DNA from: an uncultured Actinomycetes bacterium
GTDB taxonomy: Bacteria; Actinomycetota; UBA4738; HRBIN12
DNA: 64,000 bases
Assembly: GCA_963799625.1 (NCBI GenBank)
Contig: CAWCXU010000001.1
Coordinates: 57,979 to 121,978, forward strand
Direction: 5' to 3'
The first letter of the stretch is position 1. The number at the start of each line of letters is the position of its first letter. Positions 22,594 through 38,214 of the stretch are shown piece after piece. The translations under genes were made by a program, and so were the position numbers. The notes under the pieces were generated by a model. That model was given only the letters and a program-made list of their open reading frames with translations, searched no databases and was not told where the DNA came from.

Positions 22594-22617
22594 TTCCCGA
22601 TGGGTCCGCGCTGAAAC
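22594..22617 (-). promoter_or_regulatory. SigB/SigF-type promoter of csbD
   Basis: GTTT-15 nt-GGGAA on the minus strand. Confidence 0.7.
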
Positions 22618-22624
22618 CTCGATG

Positions 22625-23389
22625 TCAGCCGGGCGCGATGGTGCCGCGAAGCTTCGCGAGGGTCACGGTGAGGATGCGCGAGACGTGCATCTGCGAGATG
22701 CCGATCTCCGCCGCGATCTCGGACTGCGTCTTGTTCTCGAAGAAGCGGAGGTACAGGATGCGGCGCTCTCGCGCGGGCAGCTCGCGGATCGCCGGGGCGA
22801 CGTCGACCCACCCGGTGGCGAGCTCGAAGCGTTCGTCGATCTCGCCGAGGGCGTCGCCGGGCGCCGGGGCATCCTCGTCGGCCCGGCTATCCAGCGACGA
22901 GGCGGTGAACGCCTGCGCGGCGTCGACGGCCTCGATCACGTCGGACTCGGACTCACCGATCGCCTCGGCGATCTCGGCGAACGACGGAGACCGACCGAGG
23001 GATTGCTGCAGGTCGGGAAGCGTCCTGTTCACGATGAGCGCGATCTCCTGCAGCCGCCGCGGCACGCGGACCGACCACGCCTTGTCGCGGAGGTGCCGCT
23101 TGAGCTCGCCGACGATCGTCGCCGCGGCGTACGTGGAGAACTGGACGCCGCGCTCGGGGTCGAACCGATCCGTCGCCTGCAGGAGCCCGATCTCGGCGAC
23201 CTGGACGAGGTCCTCGAGCGCCTCACCCCGCCCACCGTAGCGTCGCGCCAGGTACAGCACGAGGGGATGACACTCGCGCACGATCGTCTCCCTGCGCTCG
23301 GCGGCGGGGACGCCGTGCGCGAAGGCCTGGGCGATCCGCTCGTCGCGCTCGCGCCTGCTGGTCGCCGTCTCGGTGTCGGGAGCGGTCAC
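22625..23389 (-). CDS. SigB/SigF/SigG family RNA polymerase sigma factor
   Basis: DLVQVAEIGLLQATDRFDPERGVQFSTYA, GELKRHLRDKAWSVRVPRRLQE, TQSEIAAEIGISQMHVSRIL; GTGA overlap with upstream gene. Confidence 0.92.
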   Translation of the reverse strand: MTAPDTETATSRRERDERIAQAFAHGVPAAERRETIVRECHPLVLYLARRYGGRGEALEDLVQVAEIGLLQATDRFDPERGVQFSTYAAATIVGELKRHLRDKAWSVRVPRRLQEIALIVNRTLPDLQQSLGRSPSFAEIAEAIGESESDVIEAVDAAQAFTASSLDSRADEDAPAPGDALGEIDERFELATGWVDVAPAIRELPARERRILYLRFFENKTQSEIAAEIGISQMHVSRILTVTLAKLRGTIAPG

Positions 23390-23805
23390 GTGCCGAATCC
23401 GAACCGCAAGCCGATGCACGGCCCGTCGTCGGTCATCGACTCGCCGGCCTCGTCCGCCAGCGTGTCGATCACGACCCAGGAGAAGGCGTCGATGTCGGGA
23501 CCGATCGGCCACCGACCGATCGCCGTGGTCGGCATCGTGAGGTCGACGCGCACCGTGTCGCCTTCGACGGTGATGACCTGGCGGATCGTTCCCTGTGAGC
23601 CGGATGCTTGGATCAAGCGTCCCGCGGCCTCGGACACGGCGAGGCGCAGATCGTCGACGCGGTCGAACCCCAACGGGGTGCGTCCGGCGACGACGCCGGC
23701 GACCGAGCGCAGGATGTCGATCGCGTTCGGGGTCGCGGGTACCGTCACCGACACTGGACCGAACGTCGGTGTGCCCACCCCACCTATACTAGCCACGACA
23801 TCCAC
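23386..23805 (-). CDS. RsbW-like anti-sigma factor, degenerate ATP-binding motifs; start uncertain
   Basis: VTVPA...DRVDDLRLAVSEAA opening typical of RsbW; N-box Asn and DxGxG missing; coupled to the sigma gene. Confidence 0.7.
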   Translation of the reverse strand: MDVVASIGGVGTPTFGPVSVTVPATPNAIDILRSVAGVVAGRTPLGFDRVDDLRLAVSEAAGRLIQASGSQGTIRQVITVEGDTVRVDLTMPTTAIGRWPIGPDIDAFSWVVIDTLADEAGESMTDDGPCIGLRFGFGT

Positions 23806-23852
23806 CGGCCCCGGATGCAGACACGCGCGCCGCGCAGGAGGGGAGAGCGCCG

Positions 23853-24191
23853 ATGGCGACGATGACCGTGACGCCCTCCACGTATGAGTCCTGGGGCGTG
23901 CTCACCGTCGACGGCGAGCTCGATCTGTCCACGGGACCCGAGCTCCGCGACGCGCTGAACACGCTCGCGAACGGCCACGAGCGCATCGCGATCGACCTAC
24001 GCGCGGTCACGTTCATGGACTCCACGGCCCTGGGTGTGATCGTGGCCGCCATGAAGCGCGCGCGGGAGCGCGGCGGCGAGCTCGCGCTCGTGGGGCCCAC
24101 CGGGTCCCCGCGCAAGGTGCTCTCGATCACCGCGTTGGACCAGATCGTGCCGATCGTCGACGACCCGGCGGGGCTGGCCGGGGTCGTCTGA
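23853..24191 (+). CDS. STAS anti-anti-sigma factor (RsbV-like)
   Basis: VDGELDLSTGPELR, IDLRAVTFMDSTALGV; strong SD AGGAGG. Confidence 0.9.
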   Translation: MATMTVTPSTYESWGVLTVDGELDLSTGPELRDALNTLANGHERIAIDLRAVTFMDSTALGVIVAAMKRARERGGELALVGPTGSPRKVLSITALDQIVPIVDDPAGLAGVV

Positions 24192-24193
24192 GC

Positions 24194-24577
24194 GTGCCGG
24201 ACGATCGCGGACCCTACGAGCTGTCGGTGCCCGCGGATCCCGCGGGTCTGTCCACCGTCCGTGCGTTCCTGCGCGCGGTCGCCCGCTCCATCGACTCGGA
24301 GCCCGAGCGGTCCGACGACCTCGAGCTCATCGTCTCGGAGGTGGGCGCGGCGCTGGTCGAGGGAGCCTCCACGCGGCTGCGGATCGAGGTGCGGGCCGAT
24401 GCGGCCGTGTTCGAGGTCGCGATCGACGGTGACGCGCCGCCGTCGGCGCCCGACGACAACCCGATCCGCAGGGATCTGCTCGCGACGCTTGCGCCCGACA
24501 CGACATGGACCGATCAGGGCGCTCGGTTCAGCTTGTCGCTCGAGCCGGGCGGAGAAGGGTCCGCGCAAGCGCGATAG
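24194..24577 (+). CDS. RsbW-like protein, degenerate ATP-binding motifs
   Basis: ELSVPADPAGLSTVRAFLRAVA...DDLELIVSEV; no N-box Asn or G-boxes. Confidence 0.65.
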   Translation: MPDDRGPYELSVPADPAGLSTVRAFLRAVARSIDSEPERSDDLELIVSEVGAALVEGASTRLRIEVRADAAVFEVAIDGDAPPSAPDDNPIRRDLLATLAPDTTWTDQGARFSLSLEPGGEGSAQAR

Positions 24578-24607
24578 ATCTGCACCGCTCGCCGTCCCCG
24601 GACCGAC

Positions 24608-24631
24608 GTTTCCGTCCGCGCGCGTGGGGTA
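24608..24631 (+). promoter_or_regulatory. SigB/SigF-type promoter of the Pro-rich microprotein
   Basis: GTTT-15 nt-GGGTA, 10 nt before ATG 24642. Confidence 0.7.
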
Positions 24632-24641
24632 GGCGGTAGCC

Positions 24642-24770
24642 ATGCAGACGAAGATCCGCGCAGAACGCCCGGAGCCGGGACCGGATCCCGGCCCGACCCC
24701 GGGACCGCAGCCCGAGCCCGGACCGCCTCCGCCCTCGCCGGGACCGATCCCGGTGCCGCCGCCGCTCTGA
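24642..24770 (+). CDS. 42-aa proline-rich microprotein (not in ORF track)
   Basis: MQTKIRAERPEPGPDPGPTPGPQPEPGPPPPSPGPIPVPPPL*; fills an intergenic gap; promoter directly upstream. Confidence 0.55.
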   Translation: MQTKIRAERPEPGPDPGPTPGPQPEPGPPPPSPGPIPVPPPL

Positions 24771-24789
24771 GCGGCTCCGGATCGCCGGA

Positions 24790-25842
24790 TCACGCGGCCC
24801 GACGTCGGCTCCGCTCGCCGGCGATGAGCGCGAGCACCGCCGCTTCGATGTGGGTGCGCGCCGCGTCGCCCCATCGCCCGGGAGCCACGTCGTCTGGCAC
24901 CGCGGCCAGGTCCGCGGCGATCGTCGAGCCGTCCCGGAACCGGTCGAAGATCCGGGGGTCGATGTAGGACGTGCGGCAGACCGCCGGTGTGTTGCCGAGG
25001 ACGACAGCGACGCCACGGACCACCTGGGCGATCTCGCGGTCGACCGCGCGGGCCGACCGTGTGTCGTCGTCCTCGGCCCCGGCGAGCCCGACCGCGGCGA
25101 GCACGGTCGCGTGCCACGTGCGGAAGTCCTTCGCCGATGCCTCCACACCGACGCCATCACGGAGGTAGGTGTTCACGTCGCCGGCGCGCACGGGCACGAG
25201 GCGACCGTCGTCACCCTCGTAGACGAACAGGCGCCGGCCGCCGCCGCGCCGGGCATCGAGCGCGCGGAGCACCCGCAGGGCATCGGGATCGCGGACGTCG
25301 TGCGTGCGCTCGGCGCCGCCTTTGCCTCGGTAGTGGAACACCGCGCGGGTCCGACCCACCCGGACGTGGTCCCGCCGGATCGTGGTGAGTCCGAACGAGC
25401 CGTTGTCCCGCGCGTACGTGTCCGACCCGATCCGGAACGTCGTCGCGTCCAGCAGCCGGACCGTGCACGCGAGGACGCGCTCGCGGGCGAGGCCCCGGCT
25501 CGACAGGTCGTGGGCGACCTGCACGCGGAGGTCCGGCAGGCCCTGCGCGAAGACCTCGATCCGGCGGAACTTCTCGGCAGCTCGCCGCTCGTTCCACCGG
25601 TCGTGGTAGCGGTACTGCTTGCGTCCTGCCGCGTCGACGCCGACCGCCTGGATGTGTCCCGCGGGGTCGGGGCAGATCCACACGTCGGTCCACGCGGGCG
25701 GGATCGCCAGCGCAGCGATCCGCTCGAGGGTGGCCTCGTCGCGGATCGGATCGTCATGATCGTCGACGTAGCGGAAACCCCGGCCCTGCACCCGGCGGTG
25801 GACGCCGGGGCCGTGCGGCCGGCTCCGCCGGAGCCGGCTCAC
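24790..25842 (-). CDS. Bacterial DNA topoisomerase IB (poxvirus-like)
   Basis: GRGFRY, LAIPPAWTDVWIC, GHIQAVGVDAAGRKQYRYH, TFRIG, YRGKGG, AKDFRTW, GNTPAVCRTSYIDP (catalytic Tyr). Confidence 0.92.
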   Translation of the reverse strand: MSRLRRSRPHGPGVHRRVQGRGFRYVDDHDDPIRDEATLERIAALAIPPAWTDVWICPDPAGHIQAVGVDAAGRKQYRYHDRWNERRAAEKFRRIEVFAQGLPDLRVQVAHDLSSRGLARERVLACTVRLLDATTFRIGSDTYARDNGSFGLTTIRRDHVRVGRTRAVFHYRGKGGAERTHDVRDPDALRVLRALDARRGGGRRLFVYEGDDGRLVPVRAGDVNTYLRDGVGVEASAKDFRTWHATVLAAVGLAGAEDDDTRSARAVDREIAQVVRGVAVVLGNTPAVCRTSYIDPRIFDRFRDGSTIAADLAAVPDDVAPGRWGDAARTHIEAAVLALIAGERSRRRAA

Positions 25843-25868
25843 GGCCCCGGCTCGGTCGGGAACGCGAA

Positions 25869-25897
25869 GGTGCCCGGCGGCTCCGCCGCCGGGCACC
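25869..25897. terminator. Perfect 13-bp GC hairpin, probable terminator of the minus-strand membrane-protein pair
   Basis: GGTGCCCGGCGGC-TCC-GCCGCCGGGCACC, 30 nt past the stop at 25928; no U-tract. Confidence 0.55.
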
Positions 25898-25927
25898 CCC
25901 GATCCTGCCGCACCCGAGGAGCGCGCA

Positions 25928-26524
25928 TCAGCCGTTGTCGGCGTAGGCGCGCTCGGGCGTTGTGGTCGCAGTGGTTGCGTCGTCGACCCGAACGATGCGG
26001 TCACCGTCACGCGTGAGCGCTCCACCGATCGCGCCGCCGATCCCCGCGGCGAGGAACCCGCCCAGGATCGTCCAGAAGGTGCCCCACAGGGCGCCGTAGA
26101 CGACCGGGCTGGTCGCCTGGTTCGTCTGGACGTCGTTCGTCAGCTGCCCCACGCTGAAGACGTTGAGGATCGCGGGGATCCCCACCGACAGCGTCACGAG
26201 CAGCAGCAGGCCCCAGATCGTCGCGCCGTGCAGGAAGCCCGTCCCGACCCCTCGCACGCCCGAGAGGTAGCCGGCGAGCAAGCCCGCCAGGAACAGGCAC
26301 CCGACCGCGGACGCGCCGATGAACCACTCGATGTTCCGCTGGATCATGTCGACGTTCGACGCACGCGCCAGAGCGAGCCACAGGCTCGTCAACAGGGCGA
26401 GCGTGGCGAACCCGAGGAGCGTGCCCGCGAATACGGCGCTCCACCGGATCAAGGTTCGGCCGGCCTGCTCCCCGTCGTTGGTGCTCATCGTGCGCGTCGT
26501 GGTGATGGGTTGCGCGACCGTCAT
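25928..26524 (-). CDS. Membrane protein, about 4 TM, stress-associated hypothetical
   Basis: IRWSAVFAG...; four hydrophobic segments with GxxxG motifs; ATGA overlap with upstream gene. Confidence 0.7.
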   Translation of the reverse strand: MTVAQPITTTRTMSTNDGEQAGRTLIRWSAVFAGTLLGFATLALLTSLWLALARASNVDMIQRNIEWFIGASAVGCLFLAGLLAGYLSGVRGVGTGFLHGATIWGLLLLVTLSVGIPAILNVFSVGQLTNDVQTNQATSPVVYGALWGTFWTILGGFLAAGIGGAIGGALTRDGDRIVRVDDATTATTTPERAYADNG

Positions 26525-26796
26525 GGCCCGACCCACCCTTCGTGCTCCGTCACGCGCTCCTCACCGTGCGGTGTCGCGGTGATCTGCTCTCGCTCCGTCG
26601 TGGAGCGACGCGAACCCATCACGACCAACATCAGTCCGACGAGGACCGCAAGCACTCCCACCAACAGCAGGATGCCGCCCGCGGTCACGACGTCGAATCC
26701 GGTCGGGTTCGCTTCGATCGCGTAGCGCATGATCGCGCCGACGACCGCAAGCACGACACCGAGTCCGATCAATCCTGAACCAGTGCCTGTACCCAT
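26521..26796 (-). CDS. Small 2-TM membrane protein (DUF6458-like)
   Basis: GLIGLGVVLAVVGAIMRYAIEANPTGFDVVTAGGILLLVG; AAGGAGG SD. Confidence 0.7.
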   Translation of the reverse strand: MGTGTGSGLIGLGVVLAVVGAIMRYAIEANPTGFDVVTAGGILLLVGVLAVLVGLMLVVMGSRRSTTEREQITATPHGEERVTEHEGWVGP

Positions 26797-26869
26797 GGTC
26801 CGTTCCTCCTTCCGCGCCCGGCCCCTTGCCGGTCGCGCCGGTGGCCGCGGTGTCGCGGCCGACGACGGT

Positions 26870-26895
26870 TTCCCCGCAGGGAGCTCCGTTCAAAC
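26870..26895 (-). promoter_or_regulatory. SigB/SigF-type promoter (leftward of a divergent pair)
   Basis: GTTT-17 nt-GGGAA on the minus strand. Confidence 0.5.
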
Positions 26896-26908
26896 CCGCC
26901 ACCCACCC

Positions 26909-26932
26909 GTTTCAGACCAGCGCGGCGGGGTA
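26909..26932 (+). promoter_or_regulatory. SigB/SigF-type promoter (rightward of a divergent pair)
   Basis: GTTT-15 nt-GGGTA. Confidence 0.7.
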
Positions 26933-26994
26933 CGGCTCAAGCGTGGTCGGCGCCCGCCGGCCTACGACGGATCGACCCAAGGAGGAGAGCCGCC

Positions 26995-27489
26995 ATGGAC
27001 CTGATGGAGCGAGCCAACGACCGGCGCCGCGTCCTCATGCGTGACCGCATCGAGCACAAGCTCGACGACGCGCTGCGTGACAACGTGCGACTGGAGCAGG
27101 CGAACGAACTGCTGAAGGCAGAGCTCGAGCGCGAGGACCGCGAGCGCGACCACCTCTGGGGCGCCCTCGACAAGGGGTCACGCGGCCGCCGCGGTTCCGG
27201 GCGGATCCGTCGGATCGTCGTCTTGGGGGCCGGCGTGGGTACCGCCTACGTGATCGGCGCGAAGGCCGGCCGCGGCCGGTACGACGAGCTCGTCGCGTGG
27301 TGGGACCGGATGCGTGGTCGCGCCACCGAGATGCAGGACGACATGCAGCGGTCGATGTCGGCCAAGGCGACCGACATGACGAACGATCTCGCCGGCAAGA
27401 TCGAGCAAGGCGCCGCCAAGACCAGTGACGCGATCGAGGACACCGGCCACAAGGCGGCCGACTCGGTCCGTTCGGCGAGCAAGGCATAA
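26995..27489 (+). CDS. Coiled-coil protein with YtxH-like segment
   Basis: AAGGAGG SD; coiled-coil N-term; LGAGVGTAYVIGAKAGRGRYDEL; Lys/Ala/Asp-rich tail. Confidence 0.7.
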   Translation: MDLMERANDRRRVLMRDRIEHKLDDALRDNVRLEQANELLKAELEREDRERDHLWGALDKGSRGRRGSGRIRRIVVLGAGVGTAYVIGAKAGRGRYDELVAWWDRMRGRATEMQDDMQRSMSAKATDMTNDLAGKIEQGAAKTSDAIEDTGHKAADSVRSASKA

Positions 27490-27496
27490 GGACGCC

Positions 27497-27528
27497 GATG
27501 TGCGCCGGAGAGCCTAGCCGCGCACATC
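27497..27528 (+). terminator. Hairpin after the YtxH-like gene
   Basis: GATGTGCGC...GCGCACATC 9-bp stem, 7 nt after the stop. Confidence 0.45.
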
Positions 27529-27576
27529 TGGCGTGACGCCCCGGCGCGTTCACCGTCTGGCAGGTTCGCTGGGTCG

Positions 27577-27629
27577 ACGGCGGCGCGCCGGGGCCGGGGC
27601 CGGAACGGCGGCGCGCCGGGGCCGGGGCC
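27577..27629. repeat. 25-bp direct repeat, two exact copies, period 28
   Basis: ACGGCGGCGCGCCGGGGCCGGGGCC at 27577 and 27605. Confidence 0.85.
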
Positions 27630-27858
27630 AGGTTCGGCGCGGTAGGCGTCGCGGATCGGGCACCCCCGCCTCATGTCGACCGAACAGGCACAGGAACGCT
27701 CGTGAAGCTCGACGAGCTCATCGCCGTGACGAGTGGTGCGAGCAACCGCGCGATCGGGATCGAACGCGCGAACGTGGCCGAGATCGACCCGCATGGGCGA
27801 GGCGCTGGAGGAACAGCGTCGATCGTCCGGCGAGGACGATCCCAGTCCCTCGGAGGGC

Positions 27859-27882
27859 GTTTAGGCCTTCGGCGGCCGGGTA
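27859..27882 (+). promoter_or_regulatory. SigB/SigF-type promoter of the CBS operon
   Basis: GTTT-15 nt-GGGTA, 11 nt before ATG 27894. Confidence 0.75.
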
Positions 27883-27893
27883 CCCACGCTCGC

Positions 27894-28406
27894 ATGAGCA
27901 AACTCGTGCGAAACGTGATGGCGACCGAACCGAAGGTCGCGACCGAGGAGATGACGGCCGTCGACGGCGCTCGCCTGATGGCGTCCTACGACTTCGGGAT
28001 GGTGCCGATCGTGGGAGCCGACCAGCGTCTCGTCGGCGTCGTGACCGACCGGGACCTCGTCGTTCGGGTCCTCGCGAAGGGACTCGACCCGCGGACGGTC
28101 GATCTCGCCACGATCGCCACCACGAAGAACATCGCGACGATCGGCCCCGACGGATCGCTGCGCGAGGCCGAAGACCTGATGGCCGAGCACCGCGTCAAGC
28201 GCCTGCCCGTGGTCGATGGCGATGCGCTCGTCGGTGTCGTCGCGCTCGGCGATGTCGCGGTGACCGCGGCGTCGCCTCACGAGGTGGGGGAGGCCGTCGC
28301 CGAGATCTCCCGTTCGCCCGCCACCGAAGAGGTGCACGGCGTTCGGGAGCCTGCGACCGGTACCCCGGCGCAGGTGGCGCAGGACGTCCGAGCGGACGAA
28401 GGATAA
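27894..28406 (+). CDS. CBS domain-containing protein
   Basis: VRNVMATEP, LMASYDFGMVPIV, LVGVVTDRDLVVRVLA, HRVKRLPVVDG. Confidence 0.88.
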   Translation: MSKLVRNVMATEPKVATEEMTAVDGARLMASYDFGMVPIVGADQRLVGVVTDRDLVVRVLAKGLDPRTVDLATIATTKNIATIGPDGSLREAEDLMAEHRVKRLPVVDGDALVGVVALGDVAVTAASPHEVGEAVAEISRSPATEEVHGVREPATGTPAQVAQDVRADEG

Positions 28407-28416
28407 GGAGCCCAGG

Positions 28417-28865: not shown

Positions 28866-28872
28866 GCGATGC

Positions 28873-29850
28873 GTGATGGAGTTCCGGTCGACGCTCGGTG
28901 AGCTGGCCGCCCGGGTGCGCCGCGACCGGATCGCGCTGGCGGCGGCGGGCGTGACGTACCACTGGTTCCTCGCGGTGTTCCCGTTCCTGTTCGCGGTCGT
29001 CGCCGCGCTCGCCCTCACCGATCGTTCGGTCAACGACGAGGTGATCAGCTCCACGATCGAGCACGTCGCGCCGGCGGGCGTCGACGCCTTCCTTATGGGC
29101 CTGGTGACGCAAGCGCGCGCGTCGGCCGACCCGCAAGGCTTGCTCACGATCGGCATCGCCATTGCCCTGGCCGTGGTGAGCGCGTCATCCGGGATGGCTG
29201 CGCTGCTGCAAGGGATGGAGGTCGCGTCGGAGTCGGCGCCGCAACCGTGGTTCCGTCGCCGTGTTGTCGCGCTCGCGCTCGTCGTCGGAACCCTCGTCCT
29301 GGCCGGCGTGGCGATCGGCTTCGGAGCCGCGTTCGCTTCCCTCGTCGACATCCTATGGCTCGTGACGGCGATCCACTGGAGCCTCGTCGTGGTCGTGATC
29401 GCGGCGGTGCTCGGCGCGATCTCGATCGCGCGTACCCATGGGTCGGCAGCCCATCCGTTCCTGACGCTCGGCACGGCGGTCTCGATCGCGGCCATCGTGG
29501 TCGCGTCCTTCGCGATCGCCATCTTCTCTGAGCGGTTCGGAGGGTCGTTCGCACGGACGTACGGAACCTTCACGAGCATCGCCGTCCTGCTGCTGTGGTT
29601 CTACGCGGTCGCGATGGCCGTCCTCCTGGGTGCGGAGATCGACGCGGTCAGAACTCCGCGTTTGCGCCCCGGACGTACGGGTATCGATGGTGGTGTGCAA
29701 GGGAAGGAGAGCGCCATGACAAGCGAGACAGACACCGCAACGTACCGGTGTGATCTGTGCGGCGAGACCTTCGAGCGCGAAGAAGACCTTCGCGACCACT
29801 GGGAAGCACAGCACGCGGCCTCGGTCGTGGGCGCAGCGTCGCACCGTTGA
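28873..29850 (+). CDS. YihY/BrkB family inner membrane protein with in-frame C-terminal C2H2 zinc finger
   Basis: AAAGVTYHWFLAVFP, SASSGMAALLQG, FARTYGTFTSIAVLLLWFY...LLGAEI; tail YRCDLCGETFEREEDLRDHWEAQH. Confidence 0.8.
   Translation: MMEFRSTLGELAARVRRDRIALAAAGVTYHWFLAVFPFLFAVVAALALTDRSVNDEVISSTIEHVAPAGVDAFLMGLVTQARASADPQGLLTIGIAIALAVVSASSGMAALLQGMEVASESAPQPWFRRRVVALALVVGTLVLAGVAIGFGAAFASLVDILWLVTAIHWSLVVVVIAAVLGAISIARTHGSAAHPFLTLGTAVSIAAIVVASFAIAIFSERFGGSFARTYGTFTSIAVLLLWFYAVAMAVLLGAEIDAVRTPRLRPGRTGIDGGVQGKESAMTSETDTATYRCDLCGETFEREEDLRDHWEAQHAASVVGAASHR
29716..29850 (+). CDS. Possible independently translated 44-aa C2H2 zinc-finger microprotein (internal start)
   Basis: GGGAAGGAG SD 7 nt before ATG 29716, in frame with YihY. 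Confidence 0.55.
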   Translation: MTSETDTATYRCDLCGETFEREEDLRDHWEAQHAASVVGAASHR

Positions 29851-30301: not shown

Positions 30302-32891
30302 ATGGAGCAGAGAGCACGCCGGGACTCCATCTTCGTTCCGGCGACTCCGGGACGGCTGTGGTTGGGGATCGCGATCGCGGTCGTCTGTCCGCTCCTGATC
30401 ACGCCACTCGTGCGCACCGGCTCGCTCTCACTGGTGCCGGGCGTGCCCTACGTGCTCGCGATCGTCGCGGCGGCGCTCGTCGGCCGTCTGGTCGCCGCCG
30501 GCATCGCGGTGCTCACCTCGACCGTGCTCCTGGATCGTTTCGTGATCGCGTCTGCCGCCGGGACCGGGCAACGCACCGAGCAGGACGTGTGGGCGTTGGT
30601 CGCGTTCGTTGTCGTCGCGCTCGTCGTGGTCGAGCTGTTGGTTCGGCTCGAACGCACGGTCGGTCGCGAGGAGCGTGAGCGCGATCGACTGCGGTTCCTG
30701 GCCCGGGCCGGCGATGCCCTGTCAGGCTCGCTCGACGTGGAGGACACGCTCCGGGCGCTGAGCGAGGTGCTGGTGCCGGCGCTCGCCGACTGGTTCGCGG
30801 TGGATCTCCTGGAGGACAGCCGGATCCGCACGATCCTCGTCGTCCATCCCGATCCCGCGAAGGTCGCACTCGCGCGAGACCTCCAACGGCGCTTCCCGAC
30901 CGACCCCGATGCGCCGACCGGATCGCCGCACGTGATCCGGACGGGCGAGTCGGAGCTCACGCCCTCGATCCCCGACGAGATGCTCCGGGCATTGATCGAG
31001 GATCCCGAGCTCCTCGAGACGATGCGCGGCCTCGGCCTGCGCTGCGCGATGGTGGTACCGCTCACGGCTCGAGGGCGGACGTTCGGCGCGCTCACCTTGA
31101 TCGGGGCCGAGACGCACCCTCGCTACGACTCTGCAGACCTGCAGCTCGCAGAGGAGATCGCGGATCGAGCGGCGCTGGCGATCGACACCGCTCGGTCCTT
31201 CGCCGCCGAGAGCGAGGCTCGGGCCGCAGCCGTGGAGCTCGCCCGTCGCAACGAGGTGCTGAAGGACGTCACCGCCGCGTTCGGGCGGGCGGCGTCGGTT
31301 CCCGAGGTCCTCACCGCGATGCTCGAGCTGGGGGTCCGAACGGCGGGGGCGGCGGGGGCGACCGTCGGCATCGTCGAGGACGGCGGACGCGTGGATGTGG
31401 CCGGGCTGAGCGGCTACGAGCCCGACGATCGGCCCTACTGGAACACGTTCGCGCTCAGCGATCCGCTGCCGATGTCGGACGCGATCCGCGACCGGCAGCC
31501 GGTCGTCCTGTCGACCACCGAGGAGCGCGATCGCCTGTACCCGGCCCTGCGGGGCCGGGGAGAGCAGCGCGACCACGCGCTCGTGTGCCTGCCGCTGTTG
31601 CTCGGCGACGTCGCGATCGGCGCCTTCTCCGCCTCCTACCCCCCGGGGACCGACTTCGGTCACGAGGACCTGTCCTTCCTGCGCGCGATCGGCGAGCAGT
31701 GCGCGCAGGCCATCGACCGGGCGCGGTCACGCGAGCGGGCGGCGCGAGCGCGGTTGCGGTTCGACGCGCTCGCCACCGCCTCACGCACGCTCGCGCTGAC
31801 GCTCGACTACGAGGAGACCGCGCGGTCGGCGGTGCGGCTGGCCGTGGACCACCTGGGGGCTGAGGCGACCCTGTTCGTATCCGAGCGCGAGGGGCTGACC
31901 GCGATCGCGCACATGGCCGCCACGACGAGCGCGCCGGAGGCGTCGTCGGAGTCGCTCGAGCGGGCGGCGATGGCCGCGACCGAGCAAGGCGTCACCGTGT
32001 CCGAGCCCGGCGTCGCGATCGCGTTGCCGCTCACGATCGCCGGCACCACCTCGGGTGCGCTTGCGGTCGGCGCACCTGCGATCGACGCGGACGACGAGGA
32101 CGACCTCGCGTTCGCAAGGGAGGTGACCCGGCGGATCGCGCGGGCGATGGAGAACGCCCGGCTCTACCGGGACCGCGATCGGGTCGCCAAGACGTTGCAG
32201 GCGAGCCTGCTCCCGCCGCAGCTGCCCGTCGTGCCCGGGATGGACGTGGCGTCGCTGTTCCTGCCGGCGATCGCAGGCTACGAGGTCGGCGGCGACTTCT
32301 ACGACGTCTTCGAGCTCGACGACGGTCGGTGGGTCGCGCTCGTCGGCGACGTCTGCGGCAAGGGGCTCGAAGCGGCCGCGCTCACCGGGCTCGCGCGTCA
32401 CACGTTGCGAGCGGTCGCGAACGTCAAGCGGCCGAGCGAGGCGCTCGTCGAGCTCAACCGTGCGCTCCTGCGCGAACGGATCGACGGCCGGTTCTGCACG
32501 GTTGCCATCGCGATGCTGGAGGCGCCGGAGGGTCATGGCGCTCGCGTCACGGTCGCCGTCGGCGGGCACCCGCTGCCCCAACACGTCCTCGCGGACGGGA
32601 GCGGCGACGAGCGTCGGGCGTCACGGCACGCTGCTCGGCGTCGCCGAGAAGGTTGCCCTGCAGGATGACACCGTGATCCTCGAGCCGGGTGAGGCGCTCG
32701 TCCTGTTCACCGACGGGATCATCGGCAAGCGCGAGGAGGCCGAGGGCTCGGTCACTCTGCGGAGCGCGCTTCGGGCCGGGATGCCGGCATCGGCGGCCGA
32801 CCTGCGCGATCGGATCGAGCGGTCCGTTCGGGACGAGATGGGCAGCGATCAGCTCGACGACGTCGCCGTGTTGGTCCTGATGGCGCGCTGA
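30302..32891 (+). CDS. Membrane (DUF4118-like)-GAF-GAF-SpoIIE phosphatase, apparent frameshift near 32605
   Basis: N-term TM bundle; LVPALADWFAVDL GAF; EVGGDFYDVF, VGDVCGKG, GGHPLP, then shifted frame RHGTLLGV...LFTDGI...DDVAVLVL. Confidence 0.85.
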
Positions 32892-32898
32892 GCGCGCT

Positions 32899-33300
32899 CT
32901 ACGACGCGCACTTGCGTAGCCGCACGGTCGTGCCGGCGCGAGCCTCCGTGCCACGGTGCAGCGAGAAGTCGTCCACCATCGCGGCCATCAGGTACATCCC
33001 GCGGTGGGAGCCCGGGTCGCCCTCGACGACGGGCAGGGTCATGCGGTAGACGCCGTCATCCTCCACGGTGATCTCCACGCAGGTGCCGCTGGGAGCGACG
33101 GTGACCCGGATCTCGTCGGTGCCGCTGTACCTGATCGCGTTCGCGCACGCCTCGGTGACGGCCAGGACGAGGTCGTGGATCGACGGCTGCTCGAGGTAGG
33201 GCCGTGACGCCGCCGCGACGAACCGTCGCACGTCGGCAAGGAGTGCGGTGTTCCCCGCGGGGTACGCCTGCGTGGCGGCCGCGGCCGCCGACTCAGGCAT
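32899..33300 (-). CDS. RsbW-like anti-sigma kinase (HATPase_c_2)
   Basis: DLVLAVTEACANAIRYS, VEDDG, HRGMYLMAAMVDD. Confidence 0.82.
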   Translation of the reverse strand: MPESAAAAATQAYPAGNTALLADVRRFVAAASRPYLEQPSIHDLVLAVTEACANAIRYSGTDEIRVTVAPSGTCVEITVEDDGVYRMTLPVVEGDPGSHRGMYLMAAMVDDFSLHRGTEARAGTTVRLRKCAS

Positions 33301-33617
33301 CGCGAACCTCCTCGATCACGATGCCGAGGTCGGGGAGCCCTGCAACCTCGAACACGCGTGCGATGTGCGGCGAAGGCCCTCGCAGGTGCAGCACGCCGCG
33401 CTCGTGGATCGCCCGCTCGAGCCTGACGAGCAGACGGATCCCGCTGCTGTCGATGAACGCGAGGTCCGAGACGTCGATCGTCACGTCGCCGGGCGCATCG
33501 AACAGCGGCGACAGCGCGAGGTCGGCCTTCTCGTAGACGAGGAGGTCGAGCTCGCCGACTCAGCCGCGCGCCGTCGAGTCCCTCGGCGAGGTCGGCACGG
33601 AAGGCGTCGTCCACCAC
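33293..33617 (-). CDS. STAS-domain protein, apparent frameshift near 33560
   Basis: N-term MVDDAFRADLAEGLDGARL shifts into VGELDLLVYEKA...IDVSDLAFIDSSGIRLL. Confidence 0.75.
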
Positions 33618-33675
33618 GCGTGCACCTTACGGGGGCGGGGCGAACCCAGACAATGGTGTGAACGAGTGGGTGGAG

Positions 33676-33700
33676 GTTTCCCGCACCGCGCCCGTGGGCA
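33676..33700 (+). promoter_or_regulatory. SigB/SigF-type promoter of the CPxCG microprotein
   Basis: GGTTT-16 nt-GGGCA, 13 nt before ATG 33714. Confidence 0.55.
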
Positions 33701-33713
33701 CGACTACGTCAGG

Positions 33714-33959
33714 ATGGCCGAGGACGAGGGGACCCACTGTCCGGTGTGCGGGAAGGGCGTGCTGGCCGACATCGCGTACGACGCCGCGGCGCGCGCCGAG
33801 CCTGCCCCGGAACAGCAGCCGACGAGCCGGCAGCTCGACACGTATACGTGCGGGCACCAGGTGCCCGGCGCCCAGCTCGAGGCAGCCGACGACCGTCTCG
33901 ACGTCGAGCGCCGCACCTCGGAGGAGGCGGCCGAGCCGCGGCCGGAGCCCGACGGATGA
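33714..33959 (+). CDS. Small CPxCG-type putative zinc-binding protein
   Basis: MAEDEGTHCPVCGKG...YTCGH; acidic tail. Confidence 0.65.
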   Translation: MAEDEGTHCPVCGKGVLADIAYDAAARAEPAPEQQPTSRQLDTYTCGHQVPGAQLEAADDRLDVERRTSEEAAEPRPEPDG

Positions 33960-34106
33960 CCGACGAGCGTGATGCCCACGTTCGCCGGGATCGACGTGCG
34001 GCGGCGGGTTGCACGGACTGCGAGGTATCTCGGGAGGGAACGCAGACCGTGCTCGGGGAAGGGCCCGCCGCCGCGCGATCTGCATGATCGGGGAGGACGC
34101 CGAGCG

Positions 34107-34481
34107 CTAGGCCGGAACGGTGAGTTCGAACCAGACGCGTGTCGGGTGCTGCGCGTGCCCCCATCGGGCGGATGCATGTTCGACGATGCGAAGGCCGAAG
34201 GACCGATCCCCCCGCCTCCGGAGATCGCCGAAGCCCATCCCCGCATCGACGACCTCCACCCTGATCCCTCCCGGGAACGCGGCGACACGCACCGATACGG
34301 TCTCCGGCGCTGCCAGGCCACTGTGCACCACGCTGTTCGATACCAGCTCCGATACGAGCAGGGCAGCGAGGTCGTCGAGCTCGAGCGGCACGACACCGCT
34401 GCTACGCAACCATCGTCGCGCGTCTCGCGGAGCCTCTTTGGAAAGGGGGAGCACGGTCTGCGCTTCACGGGGAGATGCCAT
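34107..34481 (-). CDS. HATPase_c_2 ATP-binding protein (anti-sigma-like)
   Basis: APRDARRW, LLVSELVSNSVVHS, VVDAGMGF, FGLRIVEHASARWG, VWFEL. Confidence 0.82.
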   Translation of the reverse strand: MASPREAQTVLPLSKEAPRDARRWLRSSGVVPLELDDLAALLVSELVSNSVVHSGLAAPETVSVRVAAFPGGIRVEVVDAGMGFGDLRRRGDRSFGLRIVEHASARWGHAQHPTRVWFELTVPA

Positions 34482-34506
34482 GTGGGGAGTCCTCACCATC
34501 AGGAGG

Positions 34507-34530
34507 TTCCCGTTCTTCGTGCAGGGAAAC
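34507..34530 (-). promoter_or_regulatory. SigB/SigF-type promoter of the HATPase gene
   Basis: GGTTT-15 nt-GGGAA on the minus strand. Confidence 0.7.
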
Positions 34531-34790
34531 CGCCCGAACCGCGAAGCGCTCGGATGCGTACACCGATCCAGGAGCGGGTAACGCACGAACACGAGGGTGA
34601 CCGACGATGAAACAGGTGCTGATCCAACGGCCGAAGTTGCGGCGGTCCCCGCCGCCCGATCCGCTCCCGATCGATCCGCGCGACCCGGACGTGGTTCGGG
34701 CGAAGGAGCGGATCTACGCCGAGGCCCGGTCCGCACGCAGGCGCCGGTCGAGCTAGACCTCCCCGAGACCTCCCGCCCCGGCGTCGATAC

Positions 34791-36212
34791 CTACGGGGTG
34801 CCGAGGATCGCGCGCTCGTCGGCGAGCGCGATCACGAGTTGGCCGCGCGCGTTTGGATGCAGGGGCGCCGGATCGGTCGGCCCCTGCACGTAGGACTGGT
34901 CCGTGCAGAGCTCGTGCCCGGTGAAGTCCGGCTGGACGGTCTGGTAGCCGAAGGTCTGCGCACCGTTGGCGAGGACGTCGTTCAGCGCCTGCAGGTCTTG
35001 CAGCAGGGTGTCGATCTTGTCGCCGGTCAGACCGATCGACGTCAGACAGTCAAGCGAAGGGTCGAACGGCACGTAGTACTGGTTGATCACGACCGTCGGG
35101 CTCCCCGGCAAGGCGCCGATCTGCGACAGCAACCCTAGATAGTCGCGCGTGAACGACGCCAATCGCCGCTGGAAGTACGCGGTCACGGCCCGGTTGTCGC
35201 AGCTGTCCGCAGCGGCGCACAACCGGATCAGCGTGTTCCACTCGAGGTCGTTCGCGCCGACCGACACGATCACGGCCTGTGCGTTCGGTGCGCGCTTGGC
35301 GACGCCCAGCTGAGGTGGCATCGTCCGGCCGCCCTCGGACTGCGGACCGATGATCCCGTCGGGGATCGTCGCACCGCTGCACGCGAGGTTGTCGACGTTC
35401 CACTCGTTCACGCGCGCGAGCACCTCTGCGAACGCGACCGAGCTGCGCTCGCAGGCGGTGTCGTCAGCGGTGGGGTGGGCGAGCGGCGCCCCGCCGAGCC
35501 CCGCGGCGGTGGAGTCGCCGAGCACGATCGCCTGCACGCCGGCGAGCGACGGTCCTGGTGCGACCGCGACGGGCGCGATCTGTGTCTGGCCGACCAGGCC
35601 CTCGAGGCTCCGGACGTCGCGCAGGACCGCCGGTGCGGTGAACGCCGTCACCATGATCAGCCCCAGGTTCACGGCCTCGACGAACAGCAGGCCGCCCCCG
35701 ATCACCATCACGGTCTTCTTCCCGTGGTAGCGGCGCCAGCCCGCGATCGCCCCGAGGAGGACGATCGCGCCGAGCGCGACGTACAGGATCTCGGAGGCGA
35801 AGTACCAGCGCCATCCGCTCGCGAGCGCCGACCCGAGGGTCTCCGCGATCGAGGCGTGCGGGCCGGGAGAGAACAGCCCCGCGACCTGTTCGTTGAGGCT
35901 GATGTCGGTGAGCGTGAGCTGCGGCCGCACGGGGCCGAAGAACTCGACCTGCGTGGGGATCGTCTGCCCGAACAGCACGGCCTGTCCCGGTCCCTTCAGG
36001 TGCCAGGTCGGCGGCGCGGTCCCCACCGACACCGTTTGTCCGAGCGCCTGGACCGTCCGTTCGGGGGTCACCTGCAGCGCGAACGCGATCGAGGCGACCG
36101 TGACCGCGAGCAGGAGGCCGAACCCGACCAGGACGCGCAGGACCCGCCGCCCGCGGCTCCGTGTGGGGGCGGGCTGCTCCGTGTCGATCGCGGACGTGGT
36201 GGACGTAGACAT
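34791..36212 (-). CDS. Membrane-anchored SGNH/GDSL hydrolase
   Basis: Three N-terminal TM segments; LGDSTAAG (Ser), LACSGAT, SVGANDL, PLHPNARG (His). Confidence 0.85.
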   Translation of the reverse strand: MSTSTTSAIDTEQPAPTRSRGRRVLRVLVGFGLLLAVTVASIAFALQVTPERTVQALGQTVSVGTAPPTWHLKGPGQAVLFGQTIPTQVEFFGPVRPQLTLTDISLNEQVAGLFSPGPHASIAETLGSALASGWRWYFASEILYVALGAIVLLGAIAGWRRYHGKKTVMVIGGGLLFVEAVNLGLIMVTAFTAPAVLRDVRSLEGLVGQTQIAPVAVAPGPSLAGVQAIVLGDSTAAGLGGAPLAHPTADDTACERSSVAFAEVLARVNEWNVDNLACSGATIPDGIIGPQSEGGRTMPPQLGVAKRAPNAQAVIVSVGANDLEWNTLIRLCAAADSCDNRAVTAYFQRRLASFTRDYLGLLSQIGALPGSPTVVINQYYVPFDPSLDCLTSIGLTGDKIDTLLQDLQALNDVLANGAQTFGYQTVQPDFTGHELCTDQSYVQGPTDPAPLHPNARGQLVIALADERAILGTP

Positions 36213-36362
36213 GGGTATCGGGTGGGGTATCGGGTGCCGAGACCTCGCGGGATAGCCAGCCTACCGGCGTCGGGCGAACCGCCTGTCGGATACCCCCTCC
36301 CTCGTTCGTCTGAGGAGTGGTTCGCGGGGATGCGGACCGGTGACGGACGGAAGGAGGCACCG

Positions 36363-36803
36363 ATGTTCCATTCCTCGATCACGATCGACGCGCCGCCCGA
36401 GGCGGTCTTCGACGAGCTCTCCCACGTGGAGCGGCACCCGGCCTGGGCCAACCCCAAGGCAGACATGACGATGGAGCAGGTGGCGGGTGAGGGCCCGGGA
36501 CCCGACGCGAAGTACCGGTCGACCGGGATCTTCACGAAGTCGCGGGTCTCGGCCGACCTGGCGGTGACGTCCTACCGGCCGTCGACCGCGTTCACGATCC
36601 GGCTGGACCAGCACCAGGAGGGGAAGAAGGACGCCTGGTACCAGCACGCGTACACGCTGACGCCGCAGGGCTCCGGCACGCTTCTGGAGAAGGAGACCGA
36701 CGGGAGCATCAATCCCGTGGTCCGGGTGCTCGCCGGGCCGGCGATCAAGAAGGACGCGATGACCTCGCTGACCAACCTGAAGCACCTGCTCGAGTCCCGC
36801 TGA
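36363..36803 (+). CDS. SRPBCC (polyketide cyclase/dehydrase-like) family protein
   Basis: SSITIDAPPEAVFDELSHVERHPAW; AAGGAGG SD. Confidence 0.8.
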   Translation: MFHSSITIDAPPEAVFDELSHVERHPAWANPKADMTMEQVAGEGPGPDAKYRSTGIFTKSRVSADLAVTSYRPSTAFTIRLDQHQEGKKDAWYQHAYTLTPQGSGTLLEKETDGSINPVVRVLAGPAIKKDAMTSLTNLKHLLESR

Positions 36804-36836
36804 GCTCCCCTTCTTCCTTCAACCTCGCGGATGAAG

Positions 36837-36859
36837 GTTTGGGTGTGCCTCGTTGGGTA
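36837..36859 (+). promoter_or_regulatory. SigB/SigF-type promoter of the Cys-rich microprotein
   Basis: GGTTT-14 nt-GGGTA, 10 nt before ATG 36870. Confidence 0.7.
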
Positions 36860-36869
36860 GCACGTTCGC

Positions 36870-37109
36870 ATGACGACCCCGACGATCGACGCAACCCATG
36901 CCCCGGCGTCCGGCCAGGTACGGGTGCACTGTGTCGCATGTCGTGGCGACGGGACGGTCGCGGAGGGCGATCGGTTCTCCTGCGCATGCGGACTGTCACG
37001 AGTGTGGAGATCGGAGGGTTCGGTCGAGCTCCTGGGGCCGTGCGTCGCCTGGTGGCTCGGCCCGGCGCAGGGAACGATCGGCCGGCGTCGAGTCCCACCG
37101 CTGCTCTAG
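36870..37109 (+). CDS. Small Cys-rich putative zinc-ribbon protein
   Basis: HCVACRGDG...FSCACG; promoter directly upstream. Confidence 0.55.
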   Translation: MTTPTIDATHAPASGQVRVHCVACRGDGTVAEGDRFSCACGLSRVWRSEGSVELLGPCVAWWLGPAQGTIGRRRVPPLL

Positions 37110-37135
37110 CCGGCGACGGATCGCCGAGCGGTCAC

Positions 37136-38104
37136 TCAGGACCGGGTTACCTCTGCTGGCGCTTCGCATCTGAGCTCGGCCCACACGACCTTGCCCGATC
37201 CCACCGACCCATCGCCCCACCGGTTCGCGACCGCGGCGACCAACGTCAGCCCGTGCCCCGATCTGGAGCCGCGAGGAGCCGTCGCCACCGTAGGCGCGAC
37301 AGATGAGGAGTCCTGGACCGAGATGCGGACGTTTCTTTCGCCGCGGGTAAGGGTGACGATGAAGTCAGACCGAGCGTGCACGACCGCATTGGTGGCCAGC
37401 TCGGTGACGATGAGCGCAGCGTCGTCGACCAGCCATGGGCATCGCCACGCCTCGAGCGTGTCCGCGACGAAGTGACGAGCGTCCCGCGGTGCGTACACCG
37501 TCCCCGCGAACCGGTGTGTTGCCTCAGCCAGCGCCGGCTCGGCTCCGTGGTCCTCGAGATGGCCGTTGACGCTCGAATGGAGGCGACAGAGCGTATCCAG
37601 GGCGGGGCGATGCTCGTCCTGTGTGATCGACCCTATGTGGTAGGCGCACAGCAACGAGAACGGCGTCTCGTTGCGGAGCTCGTTCCAACGGGATTCGAGG
37701 TCGAGTGCGGGAACCACATGGCCCCTGTCCCACAAGACCGCGACGATCTCGCCGTAGACAGAAACGTCACGTCCACTCTGCGCCGCTTCGCGAACGGTCG
37801 TTCCCACCAACGACTCGAAGCGCTCGCCGGTGAGGTCGCCATCTGCCAAGCTCGTCGCGACCTCCTCGGCGTCGATCGAGATCAACCGTCCGCTCGAGCG
37901 CATGTCCGAGACCGCGACGCCGAGGGACTCCATCGCAGCCCCGAAGGCGCGCGTGCGTTCCGACGTGGCAGCGATGATCGAGACGCCGCCCGCCCTGAGC
38001 GCATCGGTGAGGAACCGACCGACCTTGTCGCGCAGCTCGTCGTCGCGACGATAGAACAGCACGGCGTGATCCCGGGGCTCGACGTGTGGCTGTGCGACCG
38101 CCAT
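37136..38104 (-). CDS. MEDS sensory domain + HATPase_c_2 anti-sigma-like protein
   Basis: HAVLFYRRDDEL, VSVYGEIVAVLW, LESRWNEL, SLLCAY, then IVTELATNAVVHA, VQDSS, SGHGLTLVAAVANRWG. Confidence 0.85.
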   Translation of the reverse strand: MAVAQPHVEPRDHAVLFYRRDDELRDKVGRFLTDALRAGGVSIIAATSERTRAFGAAMESLGVAVSDMRSSGRLISIDAEEVATSLADGDLTGERFESLVGTTVREAAQSGRDVSVYGEIVAVLWDRGHVVPALDLESRWNELRNETPFSLLCAYHIGSITQDEHRPALDTLCRLHSSVNGHLEDHGAEPALAEATHRFAGTVYAPRDARHFVADTLEAWRCPWLVDDAALIVTELATNAVVHARSDFIVTLTRGERNVRISVQDSSSVAPTVATAPRGSRSGHGLTLVAAVANRWGDGSVGSGKVVWAELRCEAPAEVTRS

Positions 38105-38189
38105 CTCTCTCCGCTCATCCAGGATCTCGCAAGGACCAGACCGGACTCAAGTATGGCCGCTCCACGCTGGGGAAACCATCGCTGAAGTG

Positions 38190-38214
38190 GTTTGGTCCAT
38201 GGCTTGCGGGGGAA
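38190..38214 (+). promoter_or_regulatory. SigB/SigF-type promoter of the small membrane gene
   Basis: GGTTT-16 nt-GGGAA, 11 nt before ATG 38226. Confidence 0.6.

Follow-up and report, generated by a model that had tools for sequence, protein, structure and literature searches.

The locus studied here raises the question whether a stretch of genome from an uncultured soil actinobacterium carries a stress regulon of its own, with a sigma factor and the promoters that it would serve lying side by side. The window (the whole 64-kb stretch of DNA that was analysed) contains a gene for a sigma factor of the SigB/SigF/SigG family, and nine copies of a two-box promoter motif, GTTT-N14-17-GGG(T/A/C)A, had been listed between positions 22594 and 38214 in a preliminary description that read them as a SigB/F-type regulon. 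This interpretation was supported by the promoter consensus, the family of the sigma factor and the conservation of the sites, and the region is probably a general-stress regulon island organized around one group-3 SigB/SigF-family sigma factor with ten local promoters. The coordinates of the features are collected in Table 1.

The promoter motif and the sigma gene

When both strands of the window were scanned, 11 exact matches to GTTT-N14-17-GGGHA were found (GGGHA standing for GGG(T/A/C)A), as against an expectation of 0.75 (standard deviation 0.88, maximum 4) obtained from 100 dinucleotide-preserving shuffles of the window. All 11 were located in the 15.8 kb between 22594 and 38214 and none in the other 48.2 kb; if the matches were randomly placed, the chance of finding all of them in that quarter would be about 2e-7 (0.247^11). 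Permuting the two boxes at constant composition (80 pairs) gave no other pair with more than 5 matches, and the true boxes set at other 4-nt spacing classes gave only 0–2, compared with 11 for the true pair at 14–17 nt. GTTT itself was scarce, with only 53 copies in the 128 kb formed by both strands, so that about one in five of these copies has a GGGNA box at the right distance. Furthermore, a scan of positions 21–40 kb against Rfam (E<=0.1) yielded no matches, so no known RNA element accounts for the motif.

The nine sites of the preliminary description were all recovered among the 11 matches, and its statements that they are intergenic and that each is correctly oriented held true, each pointing at the next gene; the list itself proved incomplete, the matches at 29660(+) and 27881(-) having been missed. 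Ten of the 11 matches are placed upstream of a gene and co-oriented with it, the exception being 27881(-), and they were taken as ten probable promoters and one by-product. The claimed agreement with the SigF/SigB consensus was also confirmed. The motif is that of Mycobacterium smegmatis SigF, GTTT-N14-19-GGGTA (PMC4694148), and it fits the promoters of Bacillus subtilis SigB and of the Streptomyces coelicolor SigB homologues, GTTTAA-N12-14-GGG(A/T)A(A/T), in whose -10 box the leading GGG and the A in fifth place are nearly invariant (PMC8346170).

Genes were called with a codon-usage model trained on the long open reading frames (ORFs) of the window with high GC3, and were named with Pfam and NCBIfam. 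The sigma gene is the only one found in the window. Its product contains Sigma70 regions 2, 3 and 4 (Pfam) and, like the family, comprises about 250 amino acids (aa) without region 1.1; the nearest solved structures were 8x6g_H and the sigma-F entry 1l0o_C. The stop codon of the anti-sigma gene overlaps the start codon of the sigma gene (GTGA). The anti-sigma protein scored 26.2 bits in the Pfam model HATPase_c_2, just below the cutoff of 27.4, and its best solved relatives were the entries named 'Anti-sigma-F factor RsbW', 8jzt_B and 8ih8_C (E=6e-8).

The STAS and RsbW-like pair at 23853-24577 is transcribed divergently from the sigma operon, and the protein encoded at 30302-32668 is a candidate input phosphatase of this partner-switching module. 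Two genes outside the range of the preliminary description (13373-18173) are probably a further input to the same network. Altogether, three STAS genes and five free-standing RsbW-like genes were counted, and the 1488-aa sensor contains one more RsbW-like domain. In the STAS gene at 33293 to about 33620, a TGA interrupts the frame two codons ahead of the GELDL motif, and the N-terminal part is in another frame; the alignment with its orthologue in a related metagenome locus (L085) extends over about 95 residues.

No canonical SigF-type promoter was found upstream of the rsbW-sigma operon. The sequence there offers a conserved TAGTAT and, lacking a GTTT, a degenerate GGG(C/T)A that is broken in one of the relatives (L003). 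Hence, autoregulation of the sigma operon found no support. An invariant GTCGTGGCTAGTATAGG block is present there in four genomes (23786-23791 in the window), and it probably contains a housekeeping-type -10 box (TAGTAT).

The preliminary description had deduced very short leaders at five sites lying 10–13 nt before an ATG. The short distances were confirmed at 24608, 27859, 33676, 36837 and 38190, and the reading of them was revised. None of these sites is followed by a purine-rich stretch or Shine-Dalgarno sequence, and the leadered sites all carry one. In the promoter table of S. coelicolor the sequence printed after the -10 hexamer is mostly 8–10 nt long (PMC8346170); read as ending at the S1-mapped start, this corresponds to 9–11 nt after the A of GGGNA. 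On this rule the ATG coincides with the transcription start or lies within 0–3 nt of it, and leaderless mRNAs therefore fit better than short-leadered ones. Judged from these predicted starts and the missing ribosome-binding sites, the five sites should give rise to leaderless transcripts. Many promoters in the SigF table of M. smegmatis are likewise located 8–11 nt from the start codon (PMC4694148). Leaders of about 23–64 nt with a strong Shine-Dalgarno sequence were predicted for 22594(-), 26870(-), 26909(+) and 29660(+). The site 34507(-) is intermediate, with a leader of about 15–19 nt and only a weak Shine-Dalgarno sequence; here the conserved start is the second ATG (34481) and not the ATG 7 nt away.

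Promoter support for unannotated microproteins, as proposed earlier, was strengthened for the 42-aa and 81-aa ORFs by the conservation of the reading frame in four or five genomes. The divergence at codon positions 1/2/3 was 0.15/0.15/0.50 for the 42-aa ORF, whose length of 129 nt is kept in 4/4 genomes, and 0.09/0.15/0.37 for the 81-aa ORF in five genomes, and this concentration at the third position indicates selection on the protein. For the 57-aa, 79-aa and 100-aa products, homologues at 32–93% identity were found in other loci. The 42-aa product consists almost wholly of a Pro-Gly-Pro/Pro-x-Pro repeat (…PGPDPGPTPGPQPEPGPPPPSPGPIPVPPPL) and has no Pfam match. A longer version of the CBS protein (27702-28406) was considered and discarded; its upstream part is a frameshifted remnant, and the ATG at 27894 is conserved together with its 11-nt spacing.

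The match at 29660(+) looks real as a promoter. The peptide encoded behind it fits the classical C2H2 pattern Y-x-C-x2-C-x3-F-x5-L-x2-H-x4-H, and a homologue search with this peptide gave one match. The yihY/brkB ORF (28873-29850) has no stop before this promoter and continues in frame through the promoter, the Shine-Dalgarno sequence and the zinc-finger gene. In locus L117 the same promoter (spacer N14), the Shine-Dalgarno sequence and a stand-alone zinc-finger gene are present and yihY is absent; two forms of the peptide are therefore possible, and it may be made both as the tail of YihY and as a free microprotein. A homologue of the zinc-finger gene is also preceded by the motif in two metagenome loci (L092 and L093).

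The match at 27881(-) exists because the -10 box GGGTACCC of 27859(+) is palindromic and AAAC occurs within the coding part of the CBS gene. A divergent or antisense promoter was considered here and discarded, since the match is a by-product of the palindrome, has no gene downstream and is absent from L001-L003; it is found again only where these codons are conserved (L117).

Conservation in relatives and transcripts in soil

The orthologous locus was compared in three uncultured soil Actinomycetota metagenome-assembled genomes (L001-L003), whose sigma factors are 82–86% identical to that of the window and whose anti-sigma proteins are 81–83% identical. These genomes are fully syntenic with the window from 12.5 to 29 kb, and each of the five window sites in this range has its counterpart at the orthologous position (5/5). 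GTTT, GGGNA and the distances from box to ATG are unchanged (10 nt at 24608; 11 nt at 27859, the latter also in L117), and the spacers and flanks have been largely rewritten; at 22594(-) the boxes are invariant and the spacer has fully diverged. A metagenome scan with the GDSL protein provided relatives covering 30–42 kb (L081-L116). In these, the 33676 site was kept in five relatives, GGGCA variant included, and the 34507 site, GTTTCCCTGCA...GGG(A/C)A, in eight. Altogether, seven sites keep both boxes and the spacing at orthologous positions in related soil genomes, with diverged spacers.

The linkage was also observed in more distant loci with sigma factors 53–60% identical (L004, L006 and L007), where homologues of the csbD, 57-aa, 79-aa and 100-aa genes adjoin the sigma gene, each behind the motif; the homologue of the 100-aa protein in L004 is 73% identical. 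Around SigF-like genes the motif was found 18 times in close relatives (0.4 expected) and 83 times in Nocardia (11.5 expected), and it was not enriched in Firmicutes when all fetched loci were scanned.

Members of the regulon are gained and lost between relatives. A segment of 1,738 bp (36805-38542) is missing in L085, in which the genes for the SRPBCC protein and the M24 peptidase are direct neighbours; in the window this segment contains two promoters of the SigF type together with the genes for the 79-aa and 100-aa proteins and for the MEDS-HATPase_c_2 regulator.

Another site of the SigF type (GTTTGCG...GGGAA) is conserved among relatives, in L001 (754-778, +), L002 (401-425), L003 (252-276) and L117 (3683-3706, -). 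The gene that it drives in L001-L003 is situated between those for the 57-aa protein and YihY; in the window, where just 283 bp occupy this position, neither the site nor the gene is present.

The source organism is present in many soil and rhizosphere metagenomes and also in soil metatranscriptomes. Transcripts were available from eight soil metatranscriptome runs, belonging to at least four studies, as unstranded assembled contigs and not as reads, and their 5' ends are therefore approximate. The contig depth was high for csbD, the DUF6458 operon, the 164-aa gene (up to 75–260 in some runs) and the CBS operon, and near zero for the sigma operon, the phosphatase gene and most neighbours. Between the divergent promoters 26870(-) and 26909(+), positions 26851-26946 were covered by no contig. 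On the minus strand side, contigs ended at 26849/26850 in three runs from two studies, 9–11 nt from the predicted start at 26859-26861; on the other side they began at 26947 and 26951, 4–10 nt from the predicted start at 26941-26943. No contig bridged the sigma gene and csbD, and the csbD contigs ended at 22561-22567. One of the RNA contigs (X25, 21995-22567) spans the gap between csbD and otsA, which are probably co-transcribed; the transcript from 26870(-) may possibly read on to the gene for topoisomerase IB (24790-25791).

At 24608, 33676, 34507, 36837 and 38190, contigs of low depth began 19–47 nt downstream of the predicted starts and none upstream. Contig X41 covers 33733-33953, close to the 81-aa ORF itself, and at 34507(-) contigs ended at 34466 in two runs. 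At 38190(+) the depth was 0 over 37471-38178 and 2.7–5.2 over 38179-38355 in four runs, with one contig starting at 38248. The RNA supports promoters at these places and does not fix the start sites.

The proposed circuit, its rivals and known systems

In the proposed mechanism, the sigma factor and its RsbW/UsfX-like anti-sigma factor would be co-expressed weakly, likely from a housekeeping-type promoter (the conserved TAGTAT), and the sigma factor would be kept inactive by its partner. The timing of its release, by partner switching, would depend on the STAS antagonists and GAF/PAS-PP2C phosphatases encoded nearby and on the additional RsbW-like proteins, acting as kinases or decoys. The free sigma factor would then direct RNA polymerase to the ten local promoters, GTTT(C/G)-N14-17-GGG(T/A/C)A, and one RsbW paralogue among the targets, behind 34507(-), would feed back on the switch. 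The products are typical of stress and desiccation responses, together with small proteins: CsbD, probably OtsA, the DUF6458 protein, the CBS-pair protein and the peptides. From the co-location of sigma gene and promoters and from the linkage between sigma gene and motif conserved in relatives, we infer that the local sigma factor reads these promoters. The exact start sites and the inducing signal are likewise inferred.

Several results weigh against this reading. The sigma protein scored 241.8 bits in the NCBI SigF model NF005514/PRK07122, below its cutoff of 372, and it was therefore filed at the family level only. The rsbW-sigma operon lacks the canonical motif, unlike the autoregulated mycobacterial sigF. 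The contig ends are 16–47 nt away from the predicted starts at csbD, 24608, 33676, 34507, 36837 and 38190, and the soil runs gave hardly any signal for the genes behind the promoters at 33–38 kb. Transcripts reading through from upstream cross the CBS and zinc-finger promoters and mask the starts there. Finally, 64 kb of the genome were seen, and paralogous sigma factors with the same specificity may be encoded elsewhere.

This last point also favours a reading in which the promoters are real and are read mainly or additionally by such paralogous SigB/F-family sigma factors, the local one being one of several. Promoters of this form are cross-recognised by the nine SigB homologues of S. coelicolor (PMC8346170), and the RsbW-like and STAS genes counted above exceed the needs of one sigma factor. 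Nevertheless, the window contains no second sigma gene, the promoters are tightly clustered round the one present, the linkage recurs down to 53% sigma identity, and in M. smegmatis such a cluster goes with a single SigF; we therefore regard this reading as unlikely. That the two boxes form a transcription factor operator or a short dispersed repeat instead of a promoter appears highly improbable. It would suit the palindromic -10 box at 27859 and the 34507 site, where GTTTCCC...GGGAAAC matches both strands in L081, L086 and L111, but the boxes are asymmetric, their spacing varies over 14–17 nt, and the motif is always directed to a downstream gene and equals a published sigma consensus. Moreover, the distance to the leaderless ATGs is fixed while the spacers diverge freely, the RNA contigs have their starts just downstream of the sites, the resolvable sites are not crossed by any contig, and no Rfam family was found in the region. 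A chance origin in AT-richer intergenic DNA could appeal to the 25 of 53 GTTT copies that fall in the 17% of the sequence without called genes. The motif count is no side effect of such DNA, because the permuted boxes and the other spacings gave far fewer matches, and the shuffles, together with seven sites orthologously kept in several genomes and an eighth recurring in three further loci, refuted this explanation, whose probability we consider negligible.

The regulon island around the local sigma factor resembles most closely the SigF system of M. smegmatis. There, the genes MSMEG_1758-1804, beside rsbW1-sigF, form a dense SigF-dependent block, each with GTTT-N15-17-GGG(T/A/C)A (PMC4694148). 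The block includes a type I topoisomerase and rsbW3 (PMC4694148, PMC7693655), a SigF-dependent RsbW paralogue that boosts SigF activity (PMC7693655). The same consensus, the rsbW-sigF gene order, a promoter cluster beside the sigma gene and short distances from promoter to start codon are found in the window, as are a topoisomerase gene (IB here, downstream of the 26870(-) unit) and an RsbW paralogue with its own site, the target of 34507(-) being analogous to rsbW3. Shared too are the link to trehalose genes, the STAS antagonists (RsfA/RsfB in M. smegmatis) and the several RsbW homologues. Given the same consensus, clustering, topoisomerase and RsbW paralogue, the M. smegmatis architecture is thus met in a distant uncultured lineage. 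The differences concern the sigma factor, which is about 46–50% identical to the fetched Nocardia homologues and below the PRK07122 SigF threshold, and the targets, which are largely other small proteins (CsbD, the CBS pair, DUF6458, zinc-finger and proline-rich peptides). Besides the lack of a canonical SigF promoter upstream of the sigma operon, no carotenoid genes were seen in the window, and the host belongs to an uncultured soil lineage.

With B. subtilis SigB the locus shares the promoter type, a CsbD target and the logic of STAS antagonist, RsbW kinase/anti-sigma factor and PP2C phosphatase; the name CsbD stands for 'controlled by sigma B'. The sigB gene of B. subtilis belongs to the operon rsbV-rsbW-sigB-rsbX, within which there is a SigB promoter. 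Gene order differs in the window, no stressosome genes were identified in it, the spacer is longer (14–17 nt) and leaderless targets are not a Bacillus feature. The SigB homologues of S. coelicolor, nine paralogues concerned with osmotic stress and differentiation (PMC8346170), offer a -10 box GGGNA(N) with invariant GGG and A, a GTTT -35 box in one subgroup, high G+C DNA and RsbA/RsbW-type regulators with extra sensor domains (MEDS, GAF, PAS-PP2C), all as found here. Unlike the nine cross-recognising sigma factors and scattered targets of Streptomyces, one sigma gene and ten promoters are gathered here in 16 kb.

The biology of SigB/SigF is left unchanged by these results, since the consensus, partner switching, leaderless targets and clustering have already been described for M. 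smegmatis. The interest of the locus lies in the split between leaderless and leadered targets, the promoter-backed microproteins, the cassette-like turnover and the strong expression in soil. The raw sequence of an uncultured soil bacterium was sufficient to read a sigma factor, an anti-sigma factor, antagonists, phosphatases and ten target promoters, and the circuit can be cross-checked by comparative genomics and public soil metatranscriptomes. Small proteins of 42, 44, 57, 79, 81 and 100 aa, of a kind that gene callers tend to miss, gain support from promoters and conservation, and CsbD, the DUF6458 protein and the 164-aa coiled-coil protein are pointed to as products of the most heavily transcribed soil genes of the lineage. 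A more tentative and rather doubtful proposal is that the island, instead of being a fixed set of operons, is a patchwork of small stress-gene cassettes with their own SigF-type promoters, gained, lost and moved between related genomes. Examples would be the 1.74-kb segment with two promoters and three genes, found only in this genome, the homologous cassettes adjoining the sigma gene in more distant relatives, the gene that relatives have behind its own promoter and the window lacks, and the yihY insertion, which runs in frame through a promoter and the zinc-finger microprotein gene. If this were true, and given the strong signal in soil metatranscriptomes, the island might be what an abundant uncultured lineage of actinobacteria chiefly relies on, in situ, to respond to stress in dry soil.

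Features and minor observations

Table 1. Promoter sites and genes of the proposed regulon island and of the associated regulatory network, in window coordinates.
Feature	Coordinates	Strand	Details
STAS gene	13373-13696	-	Pfam; outside the range first described
PAS-PAS-GAFx5-PP2C-HATPase_c_2 sensor, 1488 aa	13707-18173	-	Pfam; outside the range first described
otsA, trehalose-6-phosphate synthase	20716-22275	-	Pfam Glyco_transf_20 2.5e-103
csbD	22346-22558	-	Pfam CsbD 3.6e-17
Promoter GTTT-N15-GGGAA	22594-22617	-	In the 66-nt gap from sigma stop codon to csbD; leadered, Shine-Dalgarno GAGGAGG
Sigma factor, SigB/SigF/SigG family, 254 aa	22625-23389	-	TIGR02980 258.3 bits (cutoff 234.35)
RsbW/UsfX-like anti-sigma factor, 122 aa	23386-23754	-	Directly upstream of sigma gene, co-oriented
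STAS anti-sigma antagonist	23853-24191	+	TIGR00377 79.8 (cutoff 53.45); Pfam STAS
Second RsbW-like HATPase_c_2 protein	24194-24577	+	Pfam
Promoter GTTT-N15-GGGTA	24608-24631	+	10 nt before ATG of 42-aa microprotein; no Shine-Dalgarno
Proline-rich microprotein, 42 aa	24642-24770	+	129-nt ORF
Membrane protein	25928-26524	-	Downstream of 26870(-)
DUF6458 protein	26521-26796	-	Downstream of 26870(-)
Promoter GTTT-N17-GGGAA	26870-26895	-	Drives DUF6458 gene; strong Shine-Dalgarno; GGGCA in L001-L003
Promoter GTTT-N15-GGGTA	26909-26932	+	Leadered, Shine-Dalgarno AAGGAGGAG; conserved in L001-L003
Coiled-coil/membrane stress-like protein, 164 aa	26995-27489	+	Behind 26909(+)
Promoter GTTT-N15-GGGTA	27859-27882	+	11 nt before ATG of CBS-pair protein
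Motif match, probably no promoter	27881-27903	-	Shares palindromic GGGTACCC with 27859(+)
CBS-pair protein	27894-28406	+	Behind 27859(+)
Membrane microprotein, 57 aa	28417-28590	+	Behind 27859(+), after CBS-pair gene
Promoter GTTT-N15-GGGTA	29660-29683	+	Not listed before; inside 325-aa yihY/brkB ORF; Shine-Dalgarno AAGGGAAGGAG downstream
C2H2 zinc-finger microprotein, 44 aa	29716-29850	+	ATG 29716 in frame with yihY/brkB ORF
DUF4118-GAF-GAF-PP2C (SpoIIE) phosphatase	30302-32668	+	Pfam
RsbW-like HATPase_c_2 protein	32899-33300	-	Pfam
STAS gene	33293 to ~33620	-	Pfam; apparently frameshifted in window
Promoter GTTT-N16-GGGCA	33676-33700	+	13 nt before ATG
CPxC zinc-ribbon-like protein, 81 aa	33714-33959	+	Behind 33676(+)
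RsbW-like HATPase_c_2 protein, 124 aa	34107-34481	-	Pfam
Promoter GTTT-N15-GGGAA	34507-34530	-	For RsbW-like 34107-34481; conserved start ~25 nt downstream, weak Shine-Dalgarno
Promoter GTTT-N14-GGGTA	36837-36859	+	10 nt before ATG
Cys-rich protein, 79 aa	36870-37109	+	Behind 36837(+)
MEDS-HATPase_c_2 protein (RsbA-type anti-sigma-like regulator)	37136-38104	-	Pfam MEDS 7e-19 and HATPase_c_2
Promoter GTTT-N16-GGGAA	38190-38214	+	11 nt before ATG
Membrane protein, 100 aa	38226-38528	+	Behind 38190(+)

Relaxed motif scans of the window gave extra matches inside genes, with the exception of one plausible site outside the cluster, 43286-43308 (-). This weaker match, GGTT-N14-GGGTA, is located about 130 nt upstream of a 311-aa gene (42221-43156) and is a possible outlying member of the regulon.

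In the transcribed 'intergenic' stretch 27489-27894, the 3' part of an Iron_permease (PF04120) gene survives as a frameshifted remnant (VKLDELIAVTSGAS...). L001-L003 are longer by about 2.5 kb at this place and have an Iron_permease gene that looks complete; there, the TAG stop codon of this gene belongs to the -35 sequence GTTTAG of the CBS promoter. The conserved stretch 27700-27885 was also considered as a regulatory RNA; this was rejected, as it corresponds to the Iron_permease 3' remnant and had no Rfam match.

Additionally, a 38-nt insertion (AAACCTCC...GGGTAGGTAGGA) at 28872/28873, directly before the yihY start codon, was seen in the RNA contigs of two soil runs. It contains GGGTA, but no GTTT at the right distance, and was therefore not regarded as a lost promoter. 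Single-base indels between the window and the soil strains were observed at 27498, 27756, 27815 and 29851.

The M24 peptidase (creatinase-like) gene at about 38560-39739 is one 413-codon ORF in L085 and shows a frame change near 39400 in the window, due either to a pseudogene or to an indel error of the assembly. Three paralogues of about 805 aa, each combining an FAD oxidase (DAO) with GCV_T, were found at 39706-42123, 54003-56423 and 56726-59146 (all on the minus strand), and these are of the dimethylglycine/sarcosine dehydrogenase type. Just beyond csbD lie otsA and the gene for a GH15 trehalase-like enzyme (18248-20080); ClpB is encoded at 43841-46429. Together, OtsA, the GH15 trehalase-like enzyme, ClpB and the DAO/GCV_T genes give the window a compatible-solute and stress flavour.

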